64,000 bases of DNA from an uncultured Chloroflexia bacterium (GCA_963828165.1 CAWHDR010000001.1:576001-640000); one strand, 5' to 3'; positions 7,370 through 17,389 are shown, counted from the first letter of the stretch. A program made the numbers and translations. Notes: generated from the sequence alone by a model not told the origin.

Positions 7370-7762
7370 GTGTTGAGAGGCTTCGTCATCGGTACGGCCG
7401 TGACGGCCGTCGCCTTCTACATCCTGGTCACGCTGCTCCCGGACATGTTCGCCTACGACGGCGGGATCACGGCGCTGATCGTCATCTCGATCATCTTCGG
7501 GATCGTCAACGGGCTGATCGGCCCGATCGTCAAGCTGCTCGCCCTGCCGATCAGGCTGGCGACCCTCGGCCTCGTCGGCTTCCTCATCAACGGCGGGCTG
7601 CTGCTGCTGACCGCCTGGCTGTCCGACCTCGCCGGTTTTCCGCTGCACGTCGGCGATTTCCCGCCGGACCTGCTGACCGTCGACACGCTCATCGCGGCGA
7701 TCGTCGGGGCCGTCGTCCTGTCCATCACTTCGTCCGTCATCCGGCTTGTCGTCCCCGACTGA
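7370..7762 (+). CDS. YvlD / 4-TM phage-holin-like family membrane protein
   Basis: GIVNGLIGPIVKLLALPIRLATLGLVGFLINGGLL; AGGAGG Shine-Dalgarno. Confidence 0.8.
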   Translation: MLRGFVIGTAVTAVAFYILVTLLPDMFAYDGGITALIVISIIFGIVNGLIGPIVKLLALPIRLATLGLVGFLINGGLLLLTAWLSDLAGFPLHVGDFPPDLLTVDTLIAAIVGAVVLSITSSVIRLVVPD

Positions 7763-9024
7763 GACGCCCATCGAGGAGTCGCTCCGCGTCGCGGCCCGGC
7801 GATACGGAACGCCCCTCTTCGTCACCGACCTTGCGACGGTCGACGCCGCCTGTGCGGCCGCCACAGCGGCGTTCCCGGACCCGATCATCCGGCAGTACTC
7901 GGTCAAGGCGAACGACGTGCCGGCCGTCATCGCGCGCGTCGCTTCGCGCGGGTTCGGCGCGAACGTCGTTTCGCGCGGCGAGTGGGCATTGGCCCGCCGC
8001 GCCGGCGTGCCGAACGGCCGGATCACGCTGGAGGGCGTCGGCAAGACGCCCGCCGACCTCCGTGACGCCGCGCGTGCCGCCGCGGCAGGCTCCCCGCTGC
8101 GCTGGATCGCGCTGGAATCGCCGGAAGAGGCCCGGGCGCTCGCTCTCGCGGTGCGTCGGACCAGGAAGGCCGGGTTACGCATCGATGCCCTGTACCGGCT
8201 GAATCCGGACGTCGCACCGGAGACCCTCGCCGGGCTCGCCGTGGGATCCGGTGCCAGCAAGTTCGGCATGACCGAGACCGAGATCGGGGAGGCGATCGAG
8301 GCGGGTGGCGGGCCCGACGGTCCGCTTCGCCCGCGCGGCATCCACCTGCATGTCGGGTCGCAGCTCGGTGCCGTCGATGCCTGGCGGGATGCCGTCCGCA
8401 AGGCCATCGCGATGGCCGCGTTGTGGCGCGGCTCGATCGAGACCTTCGACACCGTCGACCTGGGCGGCGGGTTCCCGGTGCTCCCAACGGACCAGCCGGC
8501 CCCGACCGTCGAGCGTTTTGCGCGCGAGCTGCCTGCCGCGCTCGAGACCGTCCCGGACGATCGTCGCCCGACCCGCCTGGCGATCGAACCGGGTCGGGCG
8601 CTCGTGGCCCGAGCCGGGTGGCTGGTCGCTCGGGTGCTCCACGTGCGCGACCGGGGCGGTCGACAGGTCGTCATCGACGCCGGCATGACCGAGCTCATTC
8701 GGCCCGCGCTCTACGGGGCGCGCCATCCGATCGTGGCCCTCACGTCGCTCGGCCGGGCCGTGGAGCCAGGAGCCGCGGCCGGGCGGGGTGCCGAGCCCGC
8801 GCGCGTCGAGGGTCCGATCTGCGAGTCGACGGACTCGCTGGGCACGCATGACCTTCCGCCTCTTCGCCGGGGCGACCTCGTGGCCATCGCCGATGCGGGC
8901 GCCTACGCCGCGTCACTCGGCTCCGCGTACAACGGGCGGCCACGCCCCCCGCAGATCATGCGGGCACCTGATGGCAGCCTCACGGTCGGTCGCCGGCGCG
9001 GCAGCTCTCGCCTCCTTGGGTTGA
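7746..9024 (+). CDS. lysA: Diaminopimelate decarboxylase
   Basis: YSVKAN (PLP Lys), SKFG, HLHVGSQ, DLGGG, EPGR, GPICESTD, GAY. The computed ORF runs to 9083, but one extra base near 9006 likely hides the end GSLASLG* at 9024. Confidence 0.9.
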
Positions 9025-9114
9025 GGAGCCGGCGGCCCCGCCGCCGATATCCCGGGAGGTGGCACAAAGCGACCCCTTGGTGATGTGGTCGCAATTGAGG
9101 CATCATTCGCCGTC

Positions 9115-9552
9115 ATGGACGATCTCGCCCGACGCATGGCCGATCTTGGCGCACCGGACCCGGACTCGTGGGCGGAGTCGGAGATTACCGAGAACATCGC
9201 TCAACAGGCTCGATACATCTTCCTCCGCTCGATCTGGCCTGAGATCATCGACCCGTATTCGGATGAAAGCGTCGTCCGCCAGATACCCGCCGCCGCGCGA
9301 CTCCTCGACGCCGGCGCGTCCATGGCGCACCTGTCGACCGCGTTGCGGGCGGTCGCCTACGAGACGGCGTTTGGTGTCGTCGAAAGGGTGGACGAGGGTC
9401 GTGACCCTGAAGCGCCCGATGACGCGCCTGGGTGGCTCCTCATGGAGACCGACGCGGAGCCGAAGTTGACGGGTCGAGACATCGGCGGCTTGCACGAGAG
9501 TTTGCTCTCGCTCGACCCTAGCGGGCGCGAAGGATCGGACCTCTCGGAGTAG
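9115..9552 (+). CDS. Cassette 1: hypothetical acidic protein
   Basis: MDDLARRMADLGAPDPDSWAESEITENIAQQARY...GLHESLLSLDPSGREG. Confidence 0.75.
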   Translation: MDDLARRMADLGAPDPDSWAESEITENIAQQARYIFLRSIWPEIIDPYSDESVVRQIPAAARLLDAGASMAHLSTALRAVAYETAFGVVERVDEGRDPEAPDDAPGWLLMETDAEPKLTGRDIGGLHESLLSLDPSGREGSDLSE

Positions 9553-9582
9553 CTCGACTCACCGAACGCGCAAACCGACCCG

Positions 9583-9608
9583 GTGTCATTGGCGCACGCT
9601 GAGCGACG
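9583..9608 (+). repeat. Cassette site 1 GTGTCATTGGCGCACGCTGAGCGACG
   Basis: Read directly; matches array consensus. Confidence 0.85.
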
Positions 9609-9712
9609 GCTGGGTGCGGTCTCCCGGGGCAAACCATGCCCCCACCGTGGCCTCGGCGTCCCAGGGGTCCTATGTCGATGCTGGACGTGCCTACAATTCG
9701 TCGGAGGTGACC

Positions 9713-10114
9713 GTGAGCTGGGACCTTATGCTGTTGCCGTTCGACCCAGATTGGACCACCGCCGAGGAGATCCCGAGCGATTGGTCCCCTGGCGTCTTGG
9801 GGCCACGTGGAACCGTCGTCGCCGCAATTTCCGAGGTGTTCCCCGGTGCAACTGAGGATGCGGTCGGGGTATTCACGCTGCCGGACGACGGAACCGAGAT
9901 ATTGGTTGGGACCGAGGACCCGACCGACGGAGTCAACGTCTCGCTGTATGGCGGCGTTTCCCCGTCGACGATGGAGCGATTGGTCCAGTTCGCAACAATC
10001 CTGGGAACCCGTGCCCTTGATACCCAAACGGCCGAGTTCCTGACGGCGGTTGGCGGTGCCAACAGCTACTCGACGTGGCTGGACTGGAAGAACCGGGTCC
10101 TGGCGTCCGAGTAG
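9713..10114 (+). CDS. Cassette 2: hypothetical acidic protein (MSWDLMLLP...)
   Basis: GGAGG 5 nt before GTG 9713; TACAAT at 9692; ORF 9614..10114. Confidence 0.7.
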   Translation: MSWDLMLLPFDPDWTTAEEIPSDWSPGVLGPRGTVVAAISEVFPGATEDAVGVFTLPDDGTEILVGTEDPTDGVNVSLYGGVSPSTMERLVQFATILGTRALDTQTAEFLTAVGGANSYSTWLDWKNRVLASE

Positions 10115-10119
10115 GCGGG

Positions 10120-10145
10120 TTTCCTGTATCGGGCACTGAGTGACG
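10120..10145 (+). repeat. Half-site (right arm only) ...GGGCACTGAGTGACG
   Basis: Right arm matches site 5 (CACTGAGTGACG); left GTGWCATT arm absent. Confidence 0.6.
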
Positions 10146-10158
10146 CGCGCGTGTCCTA

Positions 10159-10184
10159 GTGTCATTGGCGGACGCTTTGCGACG
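10159..10184 (+). repeat. Cassette site 2 GTGTCATTGGCGGACGCTTTGCGACG
   Basis: Read directly. Confidence 0.85.
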
Positions 10185-10206
10185 GAGCCTTCCCTACACT
10201 CCGCCA

Positions 10207-10475
10207 ATGGAAGACTTGGACCTGGACCGGCTCACGAAACTGGCGTCAGACGCAAGGCCGGTCCAGGGGTCCTTGGTGGAGGGACGAGACTTCACGAGCG
10301 GCGACAGTATCATTCGAACCGCTGCCGACGGTGATGACTCGGACCTGTACATAGGCGGTGGGCCGAATCGCATCGAAGATCAGGAGCTCATCGCGGCGGC
10401 TCGAAAACCGCAGTGCCGTTGCTGCTCGATGAGGTTCGTCGCCTCCGGGCGCTCCTGAGCGATCGCAGCGGATGA
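10207..10475 (+). CDS. Cassette 3: small protein with Ead/Ea22-like C-terminus (frameshift ~10408)
   Basis: MEDLDLDRL...EDQELIAAAR; the corrected frame continues NAVPLLLDEVRRLRALLSDRSG* with its TGA inside site 3. Confidence 0.6.
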
Positions 10476-10497
10476 CATTCACGCATGCTGACTGACC
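10472..10497 (+). repeat. Cassette site 3 ATGACATTCACGCATGCTGACTGACC
   Basis: Read directly; more degenerate copy. Confidence 0.75.
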
Positions 10498-10874
10498 AAC
10501 GCCAGCCGCATCCACGACAGGCCCAGATCGCTCAGGCGGACATGGCTGCATGGCTCGCGTATCCCACAGAGTTGGAACAGCAGCCCGACGAAATACAGCT
10601 CATCCAAACGATCGAACTCCCGACGAGCGAGGGGCCTAGCGACCTTTTCGTCTTTCAATTCCGAACTGACGATCCCCATTGGGCCGCCCGATCAGGATGG
10701 ATGATCGGCGTTGCGGGTCCGTACCTCAGAGCACTCCAGCCGACCAACCTCGGGCTCGGCTTCACGTTTTCGCGGCTGTCACCCGAAGATGCCATGACGC
10801 TCGAAGACCATGTCGACGAGCTGATCGGCTCCGTGGCCGACTTTGTTTCGCGCTCCACAAGGTCGCGGGATTGA
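10485..10874 (+). CDS. Cassette 4: hypothetical protein
   Basis: AQADMAAWLAYPTELEQQPDEIQL...HWAARSGWMIGVAGPY; start uncertain. Confidence 0.7.
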   Translation: MLTDQRQPHPRQAQIAQADMAAWLAYPTELEQQPDEIQLIQTIELPTSEGPSDLFVFQFRTDDPHWAARSGWMIGVAGPYLRALQPTNLGLGFTFSRLSPEDAMTLEDHVDELIGSVADFVSRSTRSRD

Positions 10875-10887
10875 CCGGCGCGCTCAA

Positions 10888-10913
10888 GTGACATTCCCGT
10901 ACGCATTGCGAAG
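10888..10913 (+). repeat. Cassette site 4 GTGACATTCCCGTACGCATTGCGAAG
   Basis: Read directly; preceded by GCTCAA as in sites 5 and 9. Confidence 0.85.
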
Positions 10914-10931
10914 AATCCGTAACCTCCTGAC

Positions 10932-11437
10932 ATGCCCGACTATCCGCCGTCCAACTTCCAGCAACTCCGGCCATCTCGGACCGGGCTGACCCCTGGCGAC
11001 ATCTTCACCATGCGCATCGCCGATGGTCGCTACCTGTTCGGTCGCGTCGTCCGGACGGACGCCCATTGCTTCGGGCCTGGATGCATCCTCGTGTACGTCT
11101 TCCGCTACATGTCGCACGAACCCGTCCTACCCCCCAGGCTGCTTGTCAGCGATCTCCTCATACCGCCAGCAACCGTGAACCGGCTCGGGTGGCCGCGCGG
11201 CTCTTTCATGACCGTCGGGCGGCGCCCGTTCGAGGACCGGGAGCGATTCCCGGTCCACTACTTCGACGACGCACCTCGCCGCAGACGCTGGGGAAGCGGC
11301 ATTTTGTCAACGAGGACGGCGAGCCAGTCGGCCGACCACCGCGCGGGGCTCCCGTGGGAACGGCTGGGCTCGGGAACTACCGGACGATTGAGGACGACGT
11401 GTCTCGCGCCCTGGGGATACCGCTGTCGCCACACTGA
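10932..11437 (+). CDS. Cassette 5: Imm26-like immunity protein (frameshift ~11270-11300)
   Basis: PGDIFTMRIADGRYLFGRVV...LLIPPATVNRLGW; C-terminus HFVNEDGEPV...GLGNYRTIEDDVSRALGIP in ORF 11066..11437. Confidence 0.65.
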
Positions 11438-11499
11438 CTCGGTCGACACGCGGGCGGTTCGCCGCAAGGCCTCCGCGCGGAGACACTCACAAGGCTCAA

Positions 11500-11525
11500 G
11501 TGATATTCGCGGACACTGAGTGACG
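11500..11525 (+). repeat. Cassette site 5 GTGATATTCGCGGACACTGAGTGACG
   Basis: Read directly. Confidence 0.85.
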
Positions 11526-11615
11526 CTGGCGTCGCCGGCCGGGGCGCGAGGGGACCGTGATCACGTGCGCCGGAGGCCCTAGGCGGGTCCCCTTCCCGGA
11601 TGTGAAGATGGACCC

Positions 11616-12101
11616 GTGGTATCGCTGTTCAGGCGCAATCGGCGCCAGCCGCCGGTCCTGCCCGAGGACTCCGGCACGCCGGACCGGGAGGGTCATACCC
11701 CTGCCGATCTGGTCGTGTCGTACCTCGACGCGCTGTATGCATGGGAACTGCGGGCGTTCAAGGCCGCCGGTGCCGATGGGGCGCTTCCGCCGCAGGTCCT
11801 GACCGATCTCGGAGCTATCCGGGAGGCCCACCTGACGTCGCGCGCCCTGGCGACCAACACCACCGTGTCCTTCGGCAACGCACCGGCGTCCGACACCAAC
11901 GTGATGACGGTCCTCGACGTAACGCAACGCGACCCAAGGCATGCCCTGGTCAGGACGACCGAGTATCCGTCCGACTCCCGACGGTCCCGGCTGGACCCGC
12001 AGGGATCCGAGTACCGACTCGCCCTGGTCGATGGACGCTGGCGGCTGAACTCGCGGACCACCAAGGATTGGGACGCCCACAAGATCCGAAGTCTGCTTTG
12101 A
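11616..12101 (+). CDS. Cassette 6: NTF2-fold immunity-like protein
   Basis: LVVSYLDALYAWE, SFGNAP, EYRLALVDGRWRL resemble Imm-NTF2/RhsIA-type proteins. Confidence 0.55.
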   Translation: MVSLFRRNRRQPPVLPEDSGTPDREGHTPADLVVSYLDALYAWELRAFKAAGADGALPPQVLTDLGAIREAHLTSRALATNTTVSFGNAPASDTNVMTVLDVTQRDPRHALVRTTEYPSDSRRSRLDPQGSEYRLALVDGRWRLNSRTTKDWDAHKIRSLL

Positions 12102-12153
12102 GCGGTGAAGCGTCGTCCGGCGGCGCGACTGACGCCGGACGCGGCGATCTCTG

Positions 12154-12179
12154 GTGACATTGCGGAACACCGAGTGACG
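12154..12179 (+). repeat. Cassette site 6 GTGACATTGCGGAACACCGAGTGACG
   Basis: Read directly. Confidence 0.85.
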
Positions 12180-12202
12180 GTGCCCTCCATTACCTTGTGC
12201 CA

Positions 12203-12631
12203 ATGGCGCCTATGGACTTCGAGTTGATACCCGATCGGACCGATACGGTGATACCGGCCCTGATCGCAGCGTGCCCGTCGTTCCAGAAGCACGAGGCATA
12301 CCCCGACTTCTTGGAAGACCGTAGCCTTCCGTACCGTGACGTATGGGCGTTCGCGCTCCACTTGGTCGACAAGCTCCAGCAGGGTGAAACCTCCGAGTTC
12401 CCCGCGCTATTCCGTGCCGTCGAGGCGTTGCTTTCAGCTGACGAGCCTGGTGTCCGTGACCTCGTCGTGGTCGGGCTCATCGAGGACCTCCAGAATGCCG
12501 CCGACCAGCGAGGAGGTGATTTGTCTGGTCGCTTTCGTCCGTGGCTCGGTCCGTTGACCGCCATGGCCTGGGATAAGGTTCATCAGTTCTGGGGAACGCG
12601 GGATCAGCCGAGTGACATTGGCACACGCTAA
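12203..12631 (+). CDS. Cassette 7: all-helical immunity-like protein (DUF7674-like)
   Basis: FPALFRAVEALL...VRDLVVVGLIEDLQN...WLGPLT...W...FW; stop TAA lies inside site 7. Confidence 0.65.
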   Translation: MAPMDFELIPDRTDTVIPALIAACPSFQKHEAYPDFLEDRSLPYRDVWAFALHLVDKLQQGETSEFPALFRAVEALLSADEPGVRDLVVVGLIEDLQNAADQRGGDLSGRFRPWLGPLTAMAWDKVHQFWGTRDQPSDIGTR

Positions 12632-12637
12632 GTGACG
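12612..12637 (+). repeat. Cassette site 7 GTGACATTGGCACACGCTAAGTGACG
   Basis: Read directly. Confidence 0.9.
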
Positions 12638-12661
12638 CACTCCGCTAGTACCCTGCCTGGT

Positions 12662-13099
12662 ATGACCGACGAGTTGAGCCCGTTGGAACGCGACGTCCTG
12701 GCGACGATCCTCGCACCTGAGCACCCCGTCATGAACGCGTTGCGTCGTCAGTTGGAGCGGTGCCGCGTGGCGTCTCGCGAGACGACTGGCGTCGGCTTCT
12801 TCACCACCCTCGCGATCGCGCCGGATATCGAGCCCGCCCCGGTGCGGCCCGGAAGGATGAGCCTCGGGGACGTCAAGGGCGACGTCGACGGCCTAGAGCA
12901 CGGGGTTGGCTTCGTCCTCTTCGTTGAGAACGGAGTTCTCGACGTGCTCGAAGGTTTCTCTTACGTGGAGCCTTGGACGGCCATAGACGCCCGATACGAA
13001 CTCAAGGCCGGAGGCGTGATGCACAGCGGCGGCAGCATGACCGACATCGAGCAGGTCCACGACGCTTGGGATCGCTCGGGTGACATTCCCGGACACTAA
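12662..13099 (+). CDS. Cassette 8: conserved hypothetical, immunity-like
   Basis: LRRQL...VASRETTGVGFFT...GLEHGVGFVLFVENGVLDVLEGFSY.EPW; stop TAA inside site 8. Confidence 0.75.
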   Translation: MTDELSPLERDVLATILAPEHPVMNALRRQLERCRVASRETTGVGFFTTLAIAPDIEPAPVRPGRMSLGDVKGDVDGLEHGVGFVLFVENGVLDVLEGFSYVEPWTAIDARYELKAGGVMHSGGSMTDIEQVHDAWDRSGDIPGH

Positions 13100-13105
13100 G
13101 CGACG
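13080..13105 (+). repeat. Cassette site 8 GTGACATTCCCGGACACTAAGCGACG
   Basis: Read directly. Confidence 0.9.
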
Positions 13106-13158
13106 AAACCGTCACATCATGTCCTTGAGGCACGTCCCGAGACCGCACACTCCTACGA

Positions 13159-13797
13159 GTGAGACCAGCTGTGCGACCCCCCAAGCAGATCGGGCTCCTG
13201 ATCGTCGCGGCGGCACTGTGCGTGTCCTGCGCTGACGTCGTCCCGTCGCCATCCAGTCGCGCCAACGTGTCGCCAGCTCTGACGTCGGACGGCCCGCCTT
13301 CGACAACCGAGCCGAGCACGAGGGCGACCGCACCGGCAGCCTCGCCCCCATCGGCGACGCCCTCACCGTCAGCATCCACTGTGCCGCCCTACCGCATCAT
13401 CGCCGGCGACGAGGTGATCGTGCCGGCACCGGGAACGATCATCTTCGGGTCCCTACCGCTCGGGCCCCGCTCCGACGGTTTTCTGGAGCCGTACCTGACC
13501 TGGCCGGAGGGAGGTCTTACGATCGACGCCGAGGTCGCCTTCGTGGCTTTCTGGGGTCAACCGCTGGGGGCCTCGCAGATCAGGATCACCCTGTATCGCG
13601 TCGCCGGCGAAACCCTTCGCCTCGCCTGGTCAGACCAGAAGCGCGTCGGCCCGGACGCCACGGGGTTCATGGACGAACTGGTGCCGTTCAAGGCACCCGG
13701 GACGTACCGCCTTGAGGTCACGCGCGGTGCGACTCTTCTGGCATGGGGACTTGCCCACATGGGTCCCCGATGCGAGACGAATTGCTCTGGCGGGTGA
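13159..13797 (+). CDS. Cassette 9: putative lipoprotein with S/T/P linker and Ig-like domain
   Basis: Signal peptide ending LCVSC; PST-rich linker; PGTYRLEVTRG. Confidence 0.65.
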   Translation: MRPAVRPPKQIGLLIVAAALCVSCADVVPSPSSRANVSPALTSDGPPSTTEPSTRATAPAASPPSATPSPSASTVPPYRIIAGDEVIVPAPGTIIFGSLPLGPRSDGFLEPYLTWPEGGLTIDAEVAFVAFWGQPLGASQIRITLYRVAGETLRLAWSDQKRVGPDATGFMDELVPFKAPGTYRLEVTRGATLLAWGLAHMGPRCETNCSGG

Positions 13798-13817
13798 TGC
13801 GGCTGCTAGTCGCTCAA

Positions 13818-13843
13818 GGGTCATTGGCGGACGCTTTGGGACG
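13818..13843 (+). repeat. Cassette site 9 GGGTCATTGGCGGACGCTTTGGGACG
   Basis: Shares GTCATTGGCGGACGCTTTG exactly with site 2. Confidence 0.85.
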
Positions 13844-13902
13844 TCACCGGTCGCTACTCAGAGGCCCACTGCGCCACGCTATCCCCCGAGTATCCTCACG
13901 AC

Positions 13903-14223
13903 GTGCGCGTAACGACTGACCTTGGCGACTTGGGCGACCTATCGATTCGGCTTCGCGTAGCTCTCGCCTCCGTGGTCCTGGCCGGCATCTTCATCGGTCT
14001 TGGGGTTGCCACTGGTTGGCTGTCCTTGCCGGCGGCTTTGCTGCTGATCTGGAACGGTGGCGTCGCTCTCCAATGGCTGTTCACCCGTCGAAGGCCGTGG
14101 TGGGACGATGAGCCGGGAGAGGACATCATCGACCGGGACTTCCCCACTCGCCTTGTCTTGGCACTTGTCCTCGACGCGGCCTTTATGGTCGCCCTGGTCG
14201 CGACACGCACCGTTTCGCTCTAG
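13903..14223 (+). CDS. Cassette 10: small 3-TM membrane protein
   Basis: Three hydrophobic segments; TATCCT 6 nt before GTG. Confidence 0.65.
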   Translation: MRVTTDLGDLGDLSIRLRVALASVVLAGIFIGLGVATGWLSLPAALLLIWNGGVALQWLFTRRRPWWDDEPGEDIIDRDFPTRLVLALVLDAAFMVALVATRTVSL

Positions 14224-14293
14224 CTCGAGGATTAGCCGCGGCATCCCAACGCGAGCCGGGCGGGGCCCGCTGCATGACCGGGGCAAGGACCAG

Positions 14294-14320
14294 GTGTCAT
14301 TGAACGCACGCTTAGTGACG
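14294..14320 (+). repeat. Cassette site 10 GTGTCATTGAACGCACGCTTAGTGACG (27 bp)
   Basis: Read directly; one extra base in the core. Confidence 0.85.
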
Positions 14321-14406
14321 GTGGCGCCGCCGCGCTGGTCGCCGCGATAGTCACAGCCCCCACGGCACATCCGTCTCAGAGCGCACCGGCTACGAAGGTC
14401 CGACAC

Positions 14407-15084
14407 ATGACATCCATCGTGATGCGACTCGCTGCCGTCGCGACGACGATCGTGGCGACCGCGGCGGTGATCACCATCCCTGTCCATGCAGAAACGTGCG
14501 TCCACGCGATGCCGGCGGCCGCGCGAGACGTCCGCGGATACACATTCGAGGGCACGATCCTTTCGATTCGCCTGGGACCCATCCAGGAAGCGGGGATGCC
14601 ACGCACGTCCGACGTCAAGATCGCCATCTCAAGAGTCCATGCGAACCCGACCGATAGGCCGCTCGAGGCGCCCTTGAGTGGCGGGCAGACCATCGAAGTC
14701 CACTCGAACGCCTGTGACGGGTTCGCGAGCGTCGGCGTCGAGACCGGGTCCCACGTCCTCATCAGCACCCAGAGCCGATATAGCGCATCGACGTGGAACA
14801 CCGCGGTGTGGCTCGCGGAAGGCGCGAAGCTTCGTCTCCTCGTCCTGACCGACTCCCACTCAGCGCAGGTCTGGCATACGGACGACCGGCGTCTCCGCGA
14901 TGCCGGAACGGTCAGCCAGGCCCTCGCCCTGGTCGCGCCAGCCGCCGTCGGCATGCCAGAGACCGCGACGGCACCTGGTCCGCTCGCCAACGTTGGCGTA
15001 CCTTTGCCGATCGTGTTTGGTGTCGTCGCATTCGTCTTGGCGCTGCTAGGAACAGCCCCCCGATGGGTGCGCACACCCGAGTGA
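14407..15084 (+). CDS. Cassette 11: secreted protein with C-terminal MPETA motif + TM anchor
   Basis: Signal peptide (VHA/ETC), two Cys, MPETA followed by a hydrophobic helix and basic tail; stop TGA inside a right-half site GCACACCCGAGTGACG (15071..15086). Confidence 0.65.
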   Translation: MTSIVMRLAAVATTIVATAAVITIPVHAETCVHAMPAAARDVRGYTFEGTILSIRLGPIQEAGMPRTSDVKIAISRVHANPTDRPLEAPLSGGQTIEVHSNACDGFASVGVETGSHVLISTQSRYSASTWNTAVWLAEGAKLRLLVLTDSHSAQVWHTDDRRLRDAGTVSQALALVAPAAVGMPETATAPGPLANVGVPLPIVFGVVAFVLALLGTAPRWVRTPE

Positions 15085-15157
15085 CGATTGCGGGCGAGGG
15101 CGGATGAGAACCGATGCTGCGGCCAGGCTCATGCATGCGCCAACCGTCCATCGTCTG

Positions 15158-15183
15158 GTGTCATTGACGAACGCATTGCCACC
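15158..15183 (+). repeat. Cassette site 11 GTGTCATTGACGAACGCATTGCCACC
   Basis: Read directly; last copy of the array. Confidence 0.75.
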
Positions 15184-15243
15184 ATCGAGAACCCACCGTG
15201 ATGGTGCGGGCCGGCGCCGCCGAGGCGTGCGACCCTGATCCAC

Positions 15244-15630
15244 GTGGTTGACTTCAACACCCCTGCCGAGACGCGCATCGATCGCTGGCTCTGTGCGGTG
15301 CGCCTGGTGAAGACCCGCCCGATTGCGACGCAGCTGTGTGAGGGCGGTCACGTCCGCGTAAATGGGGTGCCGGCGAAGCCGTCGACGAAGGTTCACGCCG
15401 GCGACCGGGTCGAGGCGCGGATCGCAGATCGTGACCGCGTCGTGGAGGTCGTGCACCCGATCGAGACGCGTGTCGGAGCACCCGTCGCTGTGACTTGCTA
15501 CGTGGACCACACCCCGCCGCCCATCGTCACCGAGGTTCGACCGGGGATCATGGCTGTGAGGGGCGAGGGCCGGCCGAGCAAGCGGCTCAGGCGCGAGCTC
15601 GAGCGCCTGCGCCGGGCTCCCAACACCTGA
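15244..15630 (+). CDS. RNA-binding S4 domain protein (Hsp15/HslR-like)
   Basis: RIDRWLCAVRLVKTR..A...C..GHVRVNG..AKPS; RGEGRPSKRLRR. Confidence 0.9.
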   Translation: MVDFNTPAETRIDRWLCAVRLVKTRPIATQLCEGGHVRVNGVPAKPSTKVHAGDRVEARIADRDRVVEVVHPIETRVGAPVAVTCYVDHTPPPIVTEVRPGIMAVRGEGRPSKRLRRELERLRRAPNT

Positions 15631-15658
15631 GGCCCGCGCTCCGTGCCATCATCCCCGC

Positions 15659-17389
15659 GTGATGCGCCGTAACGCCAGCGCTGCTCTGCTGTCCATCGGC
15701 ACGGCGATCGCCCTGCTGTTGCCGATCGCGGCCTCGGCCGCTGGGCCTCCCTACCCCGACCCGGTGGAGGGCCAGGCGGTCTACGACAACGCCGGGATCC
15801 TGTCCGACGCGACCATCGCGAGCGCCGAGGCGACGATCGATGCCATCGAGGCGCGGACTGCGGCGGAGATCGTCGTCTACACCGAGCTCACCGACTTCGG
15901 CGTGACCACCGAGGAGACCGAGGCGCGCGCCCGCGCGCTGATCGACCAGTGGGGCGTCGGACGGCGCGGCTTCGACGACGGGCTGGCGATCTTCTTCGAC
16001 ATCGACCCATCGCTCGAGCATGGCCAGGTGCAGCTCTACGCCGCGCCCGGTTTCGAGGCGACGTTCCTGACCAACGCCGAACGCCAGGCGATCTTCGACG
16101 ACGACATGCTGCCGTACCTGGAGGAGGCCGATTTCGACGGGGCGCTCGCCGTCGCGCTCGAGAAGGTCGACGCCGCCGCCACGCCCGAGAACGCCGCTCG
16201 TCTCGAAACGGGCCGGCAGATCAATGCGGTGCTGGGACTGATCGGCGCCCCGGTCGCGTTCATGGGCCTGGCCGGTTGGGCCTACATGCAGTGGCGGCGG
16301 TTTGGGAAAGACCCGGTCTACCTGGACGATCCCTCGATCCTCATGCCGGCACCGCCGCCCGACCTGACCGCGGCGTCGGGGGCGTTCGTCATGGACGGCA
16401 GGGCCTCGCGCCGTGCGCTGACGACCGCGATGCTCGATCTCGCGTCGCGCGGGCTGATGTCGTTCCGGGAGGATCGTGGACTGCTCGGGCTGTCCAACAA
16501 GGTCGGCATCGAGGTGGGGCCGCCCGAGCTTGACCCGGTCGAAGAGGCGCGGCGAGCGCTCAACGCGCGGCGACCGATCGGGCCCGCGGAGGAATACGCA
16601 CTGAAGGAGCTTCGTCAGCTCGCCCCGGGCAAGGACGCGGGCTTCATCGACGCCGACGAGCTGCCGAAGTTCGGCACGTCGGTCTCGACCTTCGACTCCA
16701 AGCTCGAATCGCACGTCGTGAAGAAGGGCTGGATGGTCGAGAAACCGAGCAAGGTCGTCAGTCGCTGGACCGGCAAGGGCGTGCTGGTGATCATCGCCGG
16801 TGGCATCGCCGTCTTTGCCGGGATCAACGTCCCGATCGCCGGGCTCGTCATGATCGGCGCCGCGACGATCGCGGGCGGTCTCGTGATCCTGGGGTTCGCC
16901 CGTGGCATGCCGGCGGTGACGATGCCAGGAGCGATGATCCGGGCGATGCTCGCCGCCTACCGGCGCACGCTCCAGAAGACCATGGAGCAGGCGCGATCCA
17001 TGGAGCAGGTCGTCAAGGAGGCGGGTCTGGAGTGGCTCGAGACGCCGGACCAGGCCGTGGTCTGGGGGACCGCCCTCGGACTCCAGGGTGAGATCGAACA
17101 AGTCCTCGCAAGGAGCCTCGAGGACGTGCGCCAGCAACCGTCGATGGCGTCGGCGACCTACTTCCCGGCGTGGTATCGGACGTCGGACGGTTCGTCGTTC
17201 GCGAGTGGGATCGCGGCTGGGAGCGGCGGCAGCATCTTCTCCGGCTCCGCCGTTCCGGACCTTGGCGGCATGATGTCGGCGTTGGGCACGATCGGGAACT
17301 CGCCGGCATCCTCGGGGAGCAGCGGCGGAGGCGGCTTCAGCGGGGGAGGCTCGGGCGGCGGCGGAGGCGGCTCGGGCGGCGGGTTCTAG
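15659..17389 (+). CDS. TPM domain / DUF2207-type membrane protein with Gly-rich tail
   Basis: VYDNAGILS, QWGVGRRGFDDGL, GGGFSGGGSGGGGGG tail. Confidence 0.8.
   Translation: MMRRNASAALLSIGTAIALLLPIAASAAGPPYPDPVEGQAVYDNAGILSDATIASAEATIDAIEARTAAEIVVYTELTDFGVTTEETEARARALIDQWGVGRRGFDDGLAIFFDIDPSLEHGQVQLYAAPGFEATFLTNAERQAIFDDDMLPYLEEADFDGALAVALEKVDAAATPENAARLETGRQINAVLGLIGAPVAFMGLAGWAYMQWRRFGKDPVYLDDPSILMPAPPPDLTAASGAFVMDGRASRRALTTAMLDLASRGLMSFREDRGLLGLSNKVGIEVGPPELDPVEEARRALNARRPIGPAEEYALKELRQLAPGKDAGFIDADELPKFGTSVSTFDSKLESHVVKKGWMVEKPSKVVSRWTGKGVLVIIAGGIAVFAGINVPIAGLVMIGAATIAGGLVILGFARGMPAVTMPGAMIRAMLAAYRRTLQKTMEQARSMEQVVKEAGLEWLETPDQAVVWGTALGLQGEIEQVLARSLEDVRQQPSMASATYFPAWYRTSDGSSFASGIAAGSGGSIFSGSAVPDLGGMMSALGTIGNSPASSGSSGGGGFSGGGSGGGGGGSGGGF

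Follow-up and report, generated by a model that had tools for sequence, protein, structure and literature searches.

Cassette arrays built by site-specific recombination are already known. In every integron that we know of, a tyrosine recombinase acts on folded attC DNA, attC being an imperfect palindrome of 55–140 bp with RYYYAAC ... GTTRRRY boxes that folds single-stranded. Large serine recombinases (LSRs) are found in another set of elements, such as the SCCmec/Ccr composite islands, Tn4451 (TnpX) and Tn5397 (TndX), which have a circular form and can pile up in tandem. We describe here an array of 11 units bounded by a short repeated site, located in a stretch of 64,000 nucleotides (the window; contig C1, positions 576001–640000) from the genome of an uncultured Chloroflexia bacterium, designated G000 (assembly of 3.31 Mb in six contigs, 70% GC, 87.7% complete). 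In our view the array probably consists of 11 mobile cassettes in the chromosome, with one gene apiece and one LSR attachment half-site at the end of each, and there is a fair chance that such arrays represent a distinct mechanism class.

In layout, this array and its counterparts resemble integrons and integron arrays without an integrase (CALIN). The cassettes are single genes that run in one direction, the crossover is at the extreme edge of the site, so that each 3′ site moves together with the gene before it, content is hypervariable at a fixed locus, the cargo consists of orphan, immunity and resistance-like genes, and often no recombinase is present in cis. They differ from integrons in that there is neither IntI nor attC, but a short site of double-strand type with the anatomy of LSR sites; in that the candidate for the enzyme is a serine recombinase, whose gene points the same way as the array and is accompanied by that of a rolling-circle Rep; and in that five arrays per genome occupy intergenic loci among housekeeping genes, many cassettes having their own −10-like box. 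An earlier reading of the window, made by a model from its sequence alone (the sequence-only reading), had reported no attC pattern. In agreement with this, the consensus of 115 sites or junctions, aligned from G000 and 13 loci of related genomes, contains no RYYYAAC/GTTRRRY boxes, and neither conserved hairpins nor conserved inverted repeats were found around the sites. A search of positions 8500–15800 against Rfam, which may hold no attC model, gave no match at E ≤ 1.

With the Ccr, TnpX and TndX elements the arrays share an LSR, imperfect inverted repeats about a non-palindromic dinucleotide (GA for TnpX and TndX), non-autonomous neighbours with the same direct repeats, and a promoter that may form at the joint. 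Those elements, in contrast, measure kilobases to tens of kilobases, bring a recombinase of their own and accumulate at a single site in short tandems at most; we know of no description of arrays of 10–19 single-gene units for them. Phage serine integrases work on one attP and one attB and are strictly directional, whereas here there are dozens of chromosomal half-sites that read as P-type. Elements that exploit Xer and dif (IMEX, pdif modules) have a site of 28 bp that resembles the host dif, its XerC and XerD arms enclosing a centre of 6 bp; the pdif modules, unlike these arrays, are not all co-oriented. The remaining neighbour is rAID-1, which, in the sections of Ross et al. (2019; 10.1101/471110) on which we draw, is defined by a tyrosine recombinase of the XerD family at its 5′ end (with >44% identity to BF9343_RS08045) and is confined to Bacteroidales. 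As far as that description goes, co-directional genes of low GC content, immunity families and repeated intergenic motifs are common to both; the present arrays are set apart by their occurrence in Chloroflexota, by the LSR and Rep at the head where these are present and by a different repeat. No tyrosine recombinase, the hallmark of rAID-1, was found at an array head in six genomes. The open-access literature yielded no serine-recombinase cassette array and none of these repeats, in keeping with the undescribed type that the sequence-only reading had proposed.

Site-bounded cassettes turn over with breakpoints at the sites

When the window was searched with the 26-nt pattern of the sequence-only reading at up to three mismatches, nine matches were obtained on the + strand, starting at 9583, 10159, 10888, 11500, 12154, 12612, 13080, 13818 and 15158; dinucleotide-preserving shuffles gave none (mean 0, maximum 0). 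Two further copies complete the 11 that had been listed. That at 10472 is degenerate, with three substitutions against the 25-nt pattern and the lowest score of the set (26.0 bits) with the position weight matrix (PWM) described below, and that at 14294 has a 1-nt insertion within the variable middle. The search found no other full copy in the window, as had been said. The 26-bp site is thus real, but its conserved block is longer than claimed: it spans roughly −4 to +24 and is continued by a weakly conserved right part that reaches about +43. Over the 115 sites the strongly conserved block reads TC.G GTGWCATT, two S, CG, a variable base, ACRCT and.WGCGA, the near-invariant positions being A14, A24, T7, T8 and A6. 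The block can be divided into an outer motif (GTGWCATT), a variable stretch of 5 nt and an inner motif (ACRCT..GCGA); in the weak right part, G32 (0.70), T38 (0.67) and C41 (0.71) stand out. A site acting as a hairpin or single strand was considered and rejected, because positions 1–5 and 13–17 pair only in the rarer T4 variant and the invariant A14 faces the commoner A4.

The 25-nt pattern gave 39 matches in G000 at up to two mismatches, and its reversed control gave 0. A PWM of 30 columns, built from 44 aligned copies, was then run over the genome with a cut-off of 18 bits, the minimum of the training set being 26 bits. All 45 matches fell within five arrays and none elsewhere. Since these very sites had served for training, the informative part of the result is the lack of matches in the rest of the genome, and the motif is therefore not a scattered operator; the sequence-only reading had named scatter upstream of ordinary genes as the contrary case. 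A looser string search (up to four substitutions) gave 51 matches, 44 of them in arrays and seven scattered, with 3–4 mismatches each. The arrays are A, that of the window (C1:585583–591182, + strand), B (C1:965241–971782, − strand), C (C1:1609102–1611596, + strand), D (C1:1778062–1778767, + strand) and E (C5:13384–21838, + strand, 16 sites). Copies are co-oriented inside each of the five, and all five are flanked by housekeeping genes; clustering of the open reading frames (ORFs) that flank 16 arrays likewise recovered only syntenic housekeeping genes. Array loci are shared between genomes: D by G000, G001 and G080, C by G000 and G077, and E by G000 and G079. The GC skew of contig C1 is flat and uninformative as to any replication-strand bias in array orientation.

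Beyond G000, the strict pattern found 50 loci in contigs of a one-genome-per-species set. About 33 belong to metagenome-assembled genomes (MAGs) of Limnocylindrales, Chloroflexia or Chloroflexota, and the remainder are single matches in unrelated taxa, in a number expected by chance. More than 120 metagenome contigs carried it among the matches listed. We retrieved 175 public loci with one strict pattern and scored them with the PWM: 83 hold at least two sites, 55 hold one and 37 none, and in 82 of the 83 multi-site loci the sites are co-oriented (the exception is L107). Within the order, 401 genomes were surveyed with the site pattern (up to one mismatch) and with the intact LSR described below; many are incomplete MAGs. 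The pattern is present in 68 of them, including one match in the unpublished G276, and reversed controls gave 0. By family, it occurs in 67 of 358 genomes of one family and in none of the 42 of a small-genome sister family. Viral contigs were rejected as hosts: of five single pattern matches only one reached 22 bits, and we read them as chance. Three loci with 2–4 co-oriented sites (L046, L063 and L065) were sorted into MAGs whose labels are Verrucomicrobiia, Candidatus Eisenbacteria and Candidatus Dormiibacterota; these are either mis-binned Limnocylindrales contigs or a sign of a wider host range.

The closest relative in the genus sample, G066, carries an array at the same locus as the window, split over two contigs. 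Both flanks are about 90% identical to those of G000, and between them only the sites align; the only matches of the G066 cassettes lie in other arrays of G000 (cassette C2 and a fragment of B9). On the left, homology stops directly after ...AAGCGAC, at position 9073/9074 of the window, and on the right it restarts after the last site (...GCCAC in G000, ...GCGAC in G066), at 15182. A second pair, G079a and G077a, has flanks that are 95–96% identical and no cassette in common, and its breakpoints are cleaner still. The two heads share the sequence ...GCGACATCACACATTGCGA, and all similarity ends with its last base; at the tails, five positions distinguish the two last sites, and identity in the flank sets in just past ...TTTGCGAC. 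A gene order fixed across relatives, which the sequence-only reading had named as another contrary case, is thus not what we find: G066 and G000, as well as G079 and G077, share flanks and no cassettes. Array size also varies at a single locus: at locus D, G000 has 2 sites, G001 has at least 4 and G080 has 13.

Homologous cassettes recur in different surroundings. Cassette 8 of the window has a counterpart of the same length (468 nt) and 73% nucleotide identity in the first cassette of array B, cassette G078_c13 agrees with one of G066 along 350 of 351 nt, G000 C2 and G066R c4 are homologous and of 349 nt each, and G001 c1–c2 match G080b c2–c3 at 99% and 93%. Junctions were aligned for seven groups of homologous cassettes. 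In five groups the upstream sites differ up to position 22 and homology begins past position 25; the remaining two groups share the upstream unit too and are uninformative on the breakpoint. Upstream cassettes keep their 3′ site, rare variants such as ...CTGACTGA included, and position 25 varies among homologous 3′ sites. As the breakpoints fall at positions 23–25, exchange takes place within G23-A24-(C25), and their confinement, instead of a scatter along the 25-bp repeat, is unlike homologous recombination between repeats. Comparison of these sequences shows cassette turnover with site-specific breakpoints. The cassette library moved by site-specific recombination that had been suggested for the window is borne out by turnover at the same locus, by breakpoints at the sites and by recurring site-bounded cassettes. 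If two G080 contigs make up one array, the first cassettes of G001 are homologous to cassettes deep in the longer G080 array at the same locus, an arrangement compatible with head-proximal growth.

Some further variation was recorded among the arrays. Loci L046 and L175 are 99.5% identical and differ by a 413-nt indel that removes a site, which we rejected as a cassette loss and read as a plain deletion, as its other end is not at a site. A cassette family of 700 nt is found in arrays B, C and E at 86–91% identity and partly in D, that is, in four of the five G000 arrays (C1:970614–971314, C1:1610444–1611155, C1:1778743 onward and C5:14170–14870); its gene of about 182 aa lies on the opposite strand and has no Pfam match, recalling the reverse-oriented stabilizing cassettes of chromosomal integrons. 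In array B (C1:968101–969662), one cassette duplicates the neighbour to its left (326 nt) and is broken after 46 nt by about 1.2 kb, and this insert contains a Glyoxalase_3 gene and a degenerate site at C1:968479.

The LSR-Rep unit and the anatomy of its putative attachment site

The single resolvase-family gene of G000 lies directly upstream of array E on contig C5 and encodes an LSR, with Resolvase and Recombinase domains and a zinc-ribbon remnant, which is split over two frames in the assembly. Together with a reverse-oriented gene for an HUH-type Rep (REP_ORF2-G2P family), it forms a unit of about 3 kb (C5:10207–13408) that heads array E. A tblastn search of the array loci revealed the same LSR and Rep pair (55–62% identity) in L065 and L110, where it precedes co-oriented sites and the LSRs are intact (465 aa). 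The intact proteins have Resolvase, Recombinase and Zn_ribbon_recom domains; their nearest solved structures are LSR integrases, and the TnpX N-terminal domain is a weak match in PDB. Searched against the 401 genomes, the intact LSR was found in 21 at E ≤ 1e-50 and in about 16 at 53% identity or more. All 14 retrieved LSR loci keep the pair of LSR and reverse Rep, and co-oriented sites follow it in 9–10 of the 12 loci overall with at least about 2.5 kb past Rep: array E of G000, L065, L110, L254, L255, L256 (8 sites), L257 (13 sites), L258 and L261, the sites at L265 being weak. No sites were found upstream of the LSR gene at any of these loci. As G079 has an array at the locus of array E without the LSR-Rep unit, this unit is an insertion at the array head. 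Pattern matches occur in 11 of the 16 genomes with the LSR vs. 57 of the 385 without it, counts in which related genomes are non-independent. Two other ORFs were observed in these units. In G000, a reverse ORF of 123 aa with no assigned family lies between Rep and the 3′ site of the unit (C5:12941–13312), and in L065 the reverse ORF between Rep and the first site (L065:4845–6073) has an N-terminus that by eye resembles an IS256-type transposase.

The LSR gene itself begins like a cassette. A half-site ending in ...GCGAC (C5:10192–10206) is followed by 12 nt, by TAATGT at +38 to +43, by 6 nt and by the start codon, a layout that is conserved across genera in an alignment of 15 heads. When the 5′ end of the LSR unit is reverse-complemented about the axis 23|24, it fits the site PWM. 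For the outer motif, the mean score is +10.7 at register 0, and nine other registers give −11 or less; the inner motif scores +3.4 at register 0, −0.3 at −2 and −14 to −22 at −1, +1 and +2. From this mirror fit it follows that the joined ends of the unit would form an imperfect inverted repeat of about 48 bp centred on G23-A24, which is non-palindromic and coincides with the mapped breakpoints. LSR attachment sites have this form, with a length of about 40–50 bp and exchange at the central dinucleotide.

The array heads have a different spacing. In the left half-sites of the 15 heads the outer motif fits best 5 bp nearer to the centre (mean −2.6); a shift of 10 bp gives −5.6, the rest from −3 to +9 give −13 to −27, and one locus is best at 6. 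The array of G079/G077, which has no LSR, displays the same compact head, and the head of the window is too degenerate to display the shift. According to the part of Rutherford et al. (2013; PMC3783163) used here, LSR half-sites consist of an inner motif for the recombinase domain and an outer motif for the zinc-ribbon domain, the outer motif lies 5 bp nearer to the centre in attB than in attP, and attB is about 10 bp shorter than attP. Given this match in spacing, we read the 3′ sites of the cassettes as P-type half-sites and the heads as B-type half-sites. Three independent lines, namely linkage of the LSR to array heads, mirror symmetry about the crossover and the 5-bp shift between attB and attP, make a strong circumstantial case for assigning the sites to the LSR.

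The junctions also show a register that resembles that of the LSR gene. Of the 115 junctions, 28 have a TANNNT whose first base is precisely +38 and 35 have one beginning between +36 and +38, any other position from +27 to +89 having it in 0–3 junctions, and ATG or GTG lies 5–9 nt past it in 31 of the 35. In about 30% of cassettes, the box is thus found 12 nt beyond the junction, with a start codon 5–9 nt further on. In view of this register of TANNNT and start codon, the junction may double as a promoter of leaderless type, a function predicted from sequence. By eye, no −35 motif and no promoter motif of the extracytoplasmic function (ECF) type fits the junctions.

Proposed mechanism and competing explanations

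If the sites are indeed LSR half-sites, the block from −4 to +24 would be the P-type (attP-like) left half-site and the first 18 nt or so of the cassette a weak right half-site. Strand exchange would occur at the invariant, non-palindromic G23-A24, which would also fix the single orientation of the units, and the array head would be a chromosomal B-type half-site. The enzyme would come from the LSR-Rep unit, the first unit of arrays at other loci, which would have a complete attP-like site with inverted repeats. A circular cassette with a P-type/B′-like junction would recombine with the B-type head, regenerating this head and leaving a P-type junction; arrays would grow at the head, and the LSR-Rep unit, with its full attP, would dock at the same place. 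That an LSR catalyses cassette movement, that a circular form exists and that entry is at the head is what we infer from the arrangement of sites and units. A wider proposal is a serious possibility, which we advance only tentatively: the system would be a serine-recombinase counterpart of the integron, in which a self-replicating LSR-Rep shuttle docks at the B-type head and deposits or removes cassettes, the junction creates a leaderless promoter, so that integration turns a cassette on, and the arrays serve soil Limnocylindrales as several immunity and accessory libraries per genome.

Several observations weigh against the involvement of this LSR. Of the 68 site-bearing genomes, 57 show no LSR-Rep unit, many being incomplete MAGs, and no recombinase adjoins arrays A (that of the window), B, C or D. 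The only LSR copy of G000 is frameshifted and lies on another contig, the equivalent of 2.3 Mb from the window array. Because of these last two findings, the window array would have to be seen as a recombinase-less counterpart of CALIN, served in trans or now fossil. The array-bearing genomes G077–G081 are devoid of this LSR, and two of them show no resolvase-family match; the resolvases of G078, G079 and G081 were rejected as candidates, as none has an adjoining site of at least 15 bits, that of G079 being 39% identical to the LSR and the others giving no match. Two loci with degraded LSRs (L259 and L266) have no sites downstream, and five further loci end too soon. The right half-sites of small cassettes are weak, with the inner motif best at register 0, the outer at shift 5 and all scores negative, and dyad symmetry over the 115 junctions is modest, the axis 23|24 still being the top of those tried. 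The PWM behind these scores was built from the sites of G000 alone. To our knowledge, moreover, classical LSR integrases recombine attP with attB only, and repeated insertion into P-type/B′-type junctions or into a regenerated head therefore needs a more permissive enzyme. TnpX, TndX and Ccr are examples of more permissive LSRs.

Much of this would be accounted for if the arrays were true site-specific arrays worked by another enzyme, a XerC/XerD-like pair or some other recombinase, and the LSR-Rep unit merely used the head as attB. Most arrays have no LSR nearby, most site-bearing genomes have no LSR-Rep unit, classical LSRs do not recombine like sites, and XerC-like and XerD-like tyrosine recombinases (so classed by sequence), 41–49 kb apart, are kept in synteny in all six genomes analysed. 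We nevertheless regard another enzyme as unlikely. The cassette sites share the motifs of the LSR-unit ends at attP spacing, the heads have them at attB spacing, and the crossover falls at the dyad centre of the site of the LSR unit. Furthermore, no tyrosine recombinase adjoins any array in the six genomes: G000 has three (PF00589), none in array flanks, and the same holds for the five further genomes. The third one (C1:454488–455393, about 300 aa) was set aside as a candidate, since it is present in only some array genomes and lies away from the arrays.

It is still less probable, and in our judgement improbable, that the repeat is mainly regulatory, an operator or upstream promoter element, and that the arrays grew by ordinary duplication and horizontal transfer, with homologous recombination between the repeats. 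Outside the arrays the genome lacks the motif, each site goes with the gene upstream of it and not with the one that it would regulate, the breaks in the five informative junction groups and at four array ends are all at positions 23–25 instead of anywhere in the 25-bp homology, and cassette content is wholly replaced between relatives that are 90–96% identical. What speaks for regulation is the register of TANNNT, which puts the site at the −35 or activator position, together with the −10-like box of the LSR gene in the same register; a promoter role is compatible with cassettes moved by the LSR and does not replace that explanation. A classical CALIN with unusually short attC sites can be given hardly any credence. 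Its layout is the same, with co-oriented single-gene units, 3′ sites, lower GC content, orphan and immunity cargo and no adjoining integrase, but a site of about 26–48 bp with no R″/L″/L′/R′ boxes, no conserved hairpin and no Rfam match does not fit, nor does a genome whose only three tyrosine recombinases are all away from the arrays.

Under the LSR explanation, the arrays would be an independent solution to gene capture in an abundant uncultured soil lineage (Chloroflexota, Candidatus Limnocylindrales), and they extend polyimmunity arrays beyond Bacteroidales. If the link to the enzyme is true, cassette arrays evolved convergently with a different recombinase chemistry, and a natural LSR for many related sites, perhaps bidirectional, would be relevant to genome engineering. 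The 25-bp tag would then also allow accessory and immunity genes to be mined from soil metagenomes, the 83 of 175 loci that already hold arrays being a beginning.

Cassettes, cargo and flanks of the window array

The unit lengths that the sequence-only reading had given (576, 313, 416, 612, 654, 458, 468, 738, 476 and 864 bp) are correct, and so is its count of a single gene per unit, each having one plausible forward ORF, which in the unit 10888–11500 is split over two frames. The GC content of the units, which had been called lower, is 0.61–0.69 vs. 0.69–0.74 in the flanks and 0.696 in the genome. Only the start of the array has to be moved: it had been placed at 9115, and by comparison with G066 the array begins at the head, a degenerate half-site (9052–9074) ending in ...AAGCGAC, of which only the inner, crossover-proximal part is present and which forms the left boundary of the variable region. 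This head, the 11 cassettes and the two flanking genes described below are on the + strand. Cassette 1 (9075–9607) has an ORF of 148 aa (9106–9552) with no Pfam match and its 3′ site at 9583–9607. The ORF of cassette 2 (9608–10183; 3′ site 10159–10183) starts at about 9614 or 9713, ends at 10114 and has no Pfam match either. Cassette 3 (10184–10496) consists of an ORF of 83 aa (10207–10458) and the degenerate 3′ site at 10472–10496; TACACT is located at +37, with ATG 6 nt beyond. In cassette 4 (10497–10912; 3′ site 10888–10912), the ORF ends at 10874 and has no Pfam match, and as a site covers its listed start (10485), the true one probably lies downstream of it.

Cassette 5 (10913–11524; 3′ site 11500–11524) encodes a homologue of Imm26 (PF15428; Pfam E = 1.8e-12), split over two frames (ORFs 10932–11519 and 11066–11437); it is probably a frameshifted, decaying cassette, or else an assembly error. 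Cassette 6 (11525–12178) has an ORF of 161 aa (11616–12101), without a Pfam match, and a 3′ site at 12154–12178. A DUF7674 protein (12203–12631; Pfam E = 6.9e-14) is encoded by cassette 7 (12179–12636), and its stop codon falls within the 3′ site (12612–12636). Cassette 8 (12637–13104; ORF 12662–13099; 3′ site 13080–13104) is the paralogue of array B cassette 1. The last three cassettes have no Pfam match: cassette 9 (13105–13842) with an ORF of 212 aa (13159–13797) and a 3′ site at 13818–13842; cassette 10 (13843–14319) with a hydrophobic product of 106 aa (13903–14223) and a 3′ site at 14294–14319; and cassette 11 (14320–15182) with an ORF of 225 aa (14407–15084), whose site at 15158–15182, the last one, is the right boundary.

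Most cassette proteins of G000 belong to no Pfam family. Those of its arrays that do are Imm26, DUF7674, DUF6228, DUF4279, Glyoxalase_3 and an AadA_C/NTP_transf_2 protein; DUF6869 scored 27.4 bits, under the Pfam cut-off of 30 bits. The AadA_C/NTP_transf_2 domain pair is seen in the first cassette of array C (C1:1609102–1610095), which encodes on the reverse strand a protein of 314 aa that is aminoglycoside-nucleotidyltransferase-like. The 138 cassette ORFs from other arrays matched 39 Pfam families, including the immunity-type CdiI_3, Barstar, Imm1, Imm74, SMI1_KNR4 and SUFU, as well as DUF4265, DUF6869, an APH phosphotransferase, methyltransferases and luciferase-like oxidoreductases. Judging from these family matches, immunity proteins of polymorphic toxins are a recurring cargo.

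The left flank of the array is conserved and consists of a housekeeping ORF of 445 aa (7746–9083), labelled lysA by the sequence-only reading, which has 93% amino acid identity in G066 and is present in 51 of 61 genomes of the genus. The conserved right flank, outside the element, is a gene with an S4 domain (15244–15630; Pfam S4, E = 3.9e-15), and the sequence there has about 91% nucleotide identity with G066. An empty-site comparison at the lysA locus was given up, as in the more distant relatives G042, G021 and G071 lysA is followed by another gene and the intergenic sequence cannot be aligned. Because the neighbours of lysA differ elsewhere, array and S4 gene lie at a rearranged junction which, among the genomes checked, only G000 and G066 display. 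In most genomes of the genus the S4-domain gene is remote from lysA, and in G021 and G071 lysA is directly followed by the TPM-domain gene that occupies positions 15659–17389 of the window.

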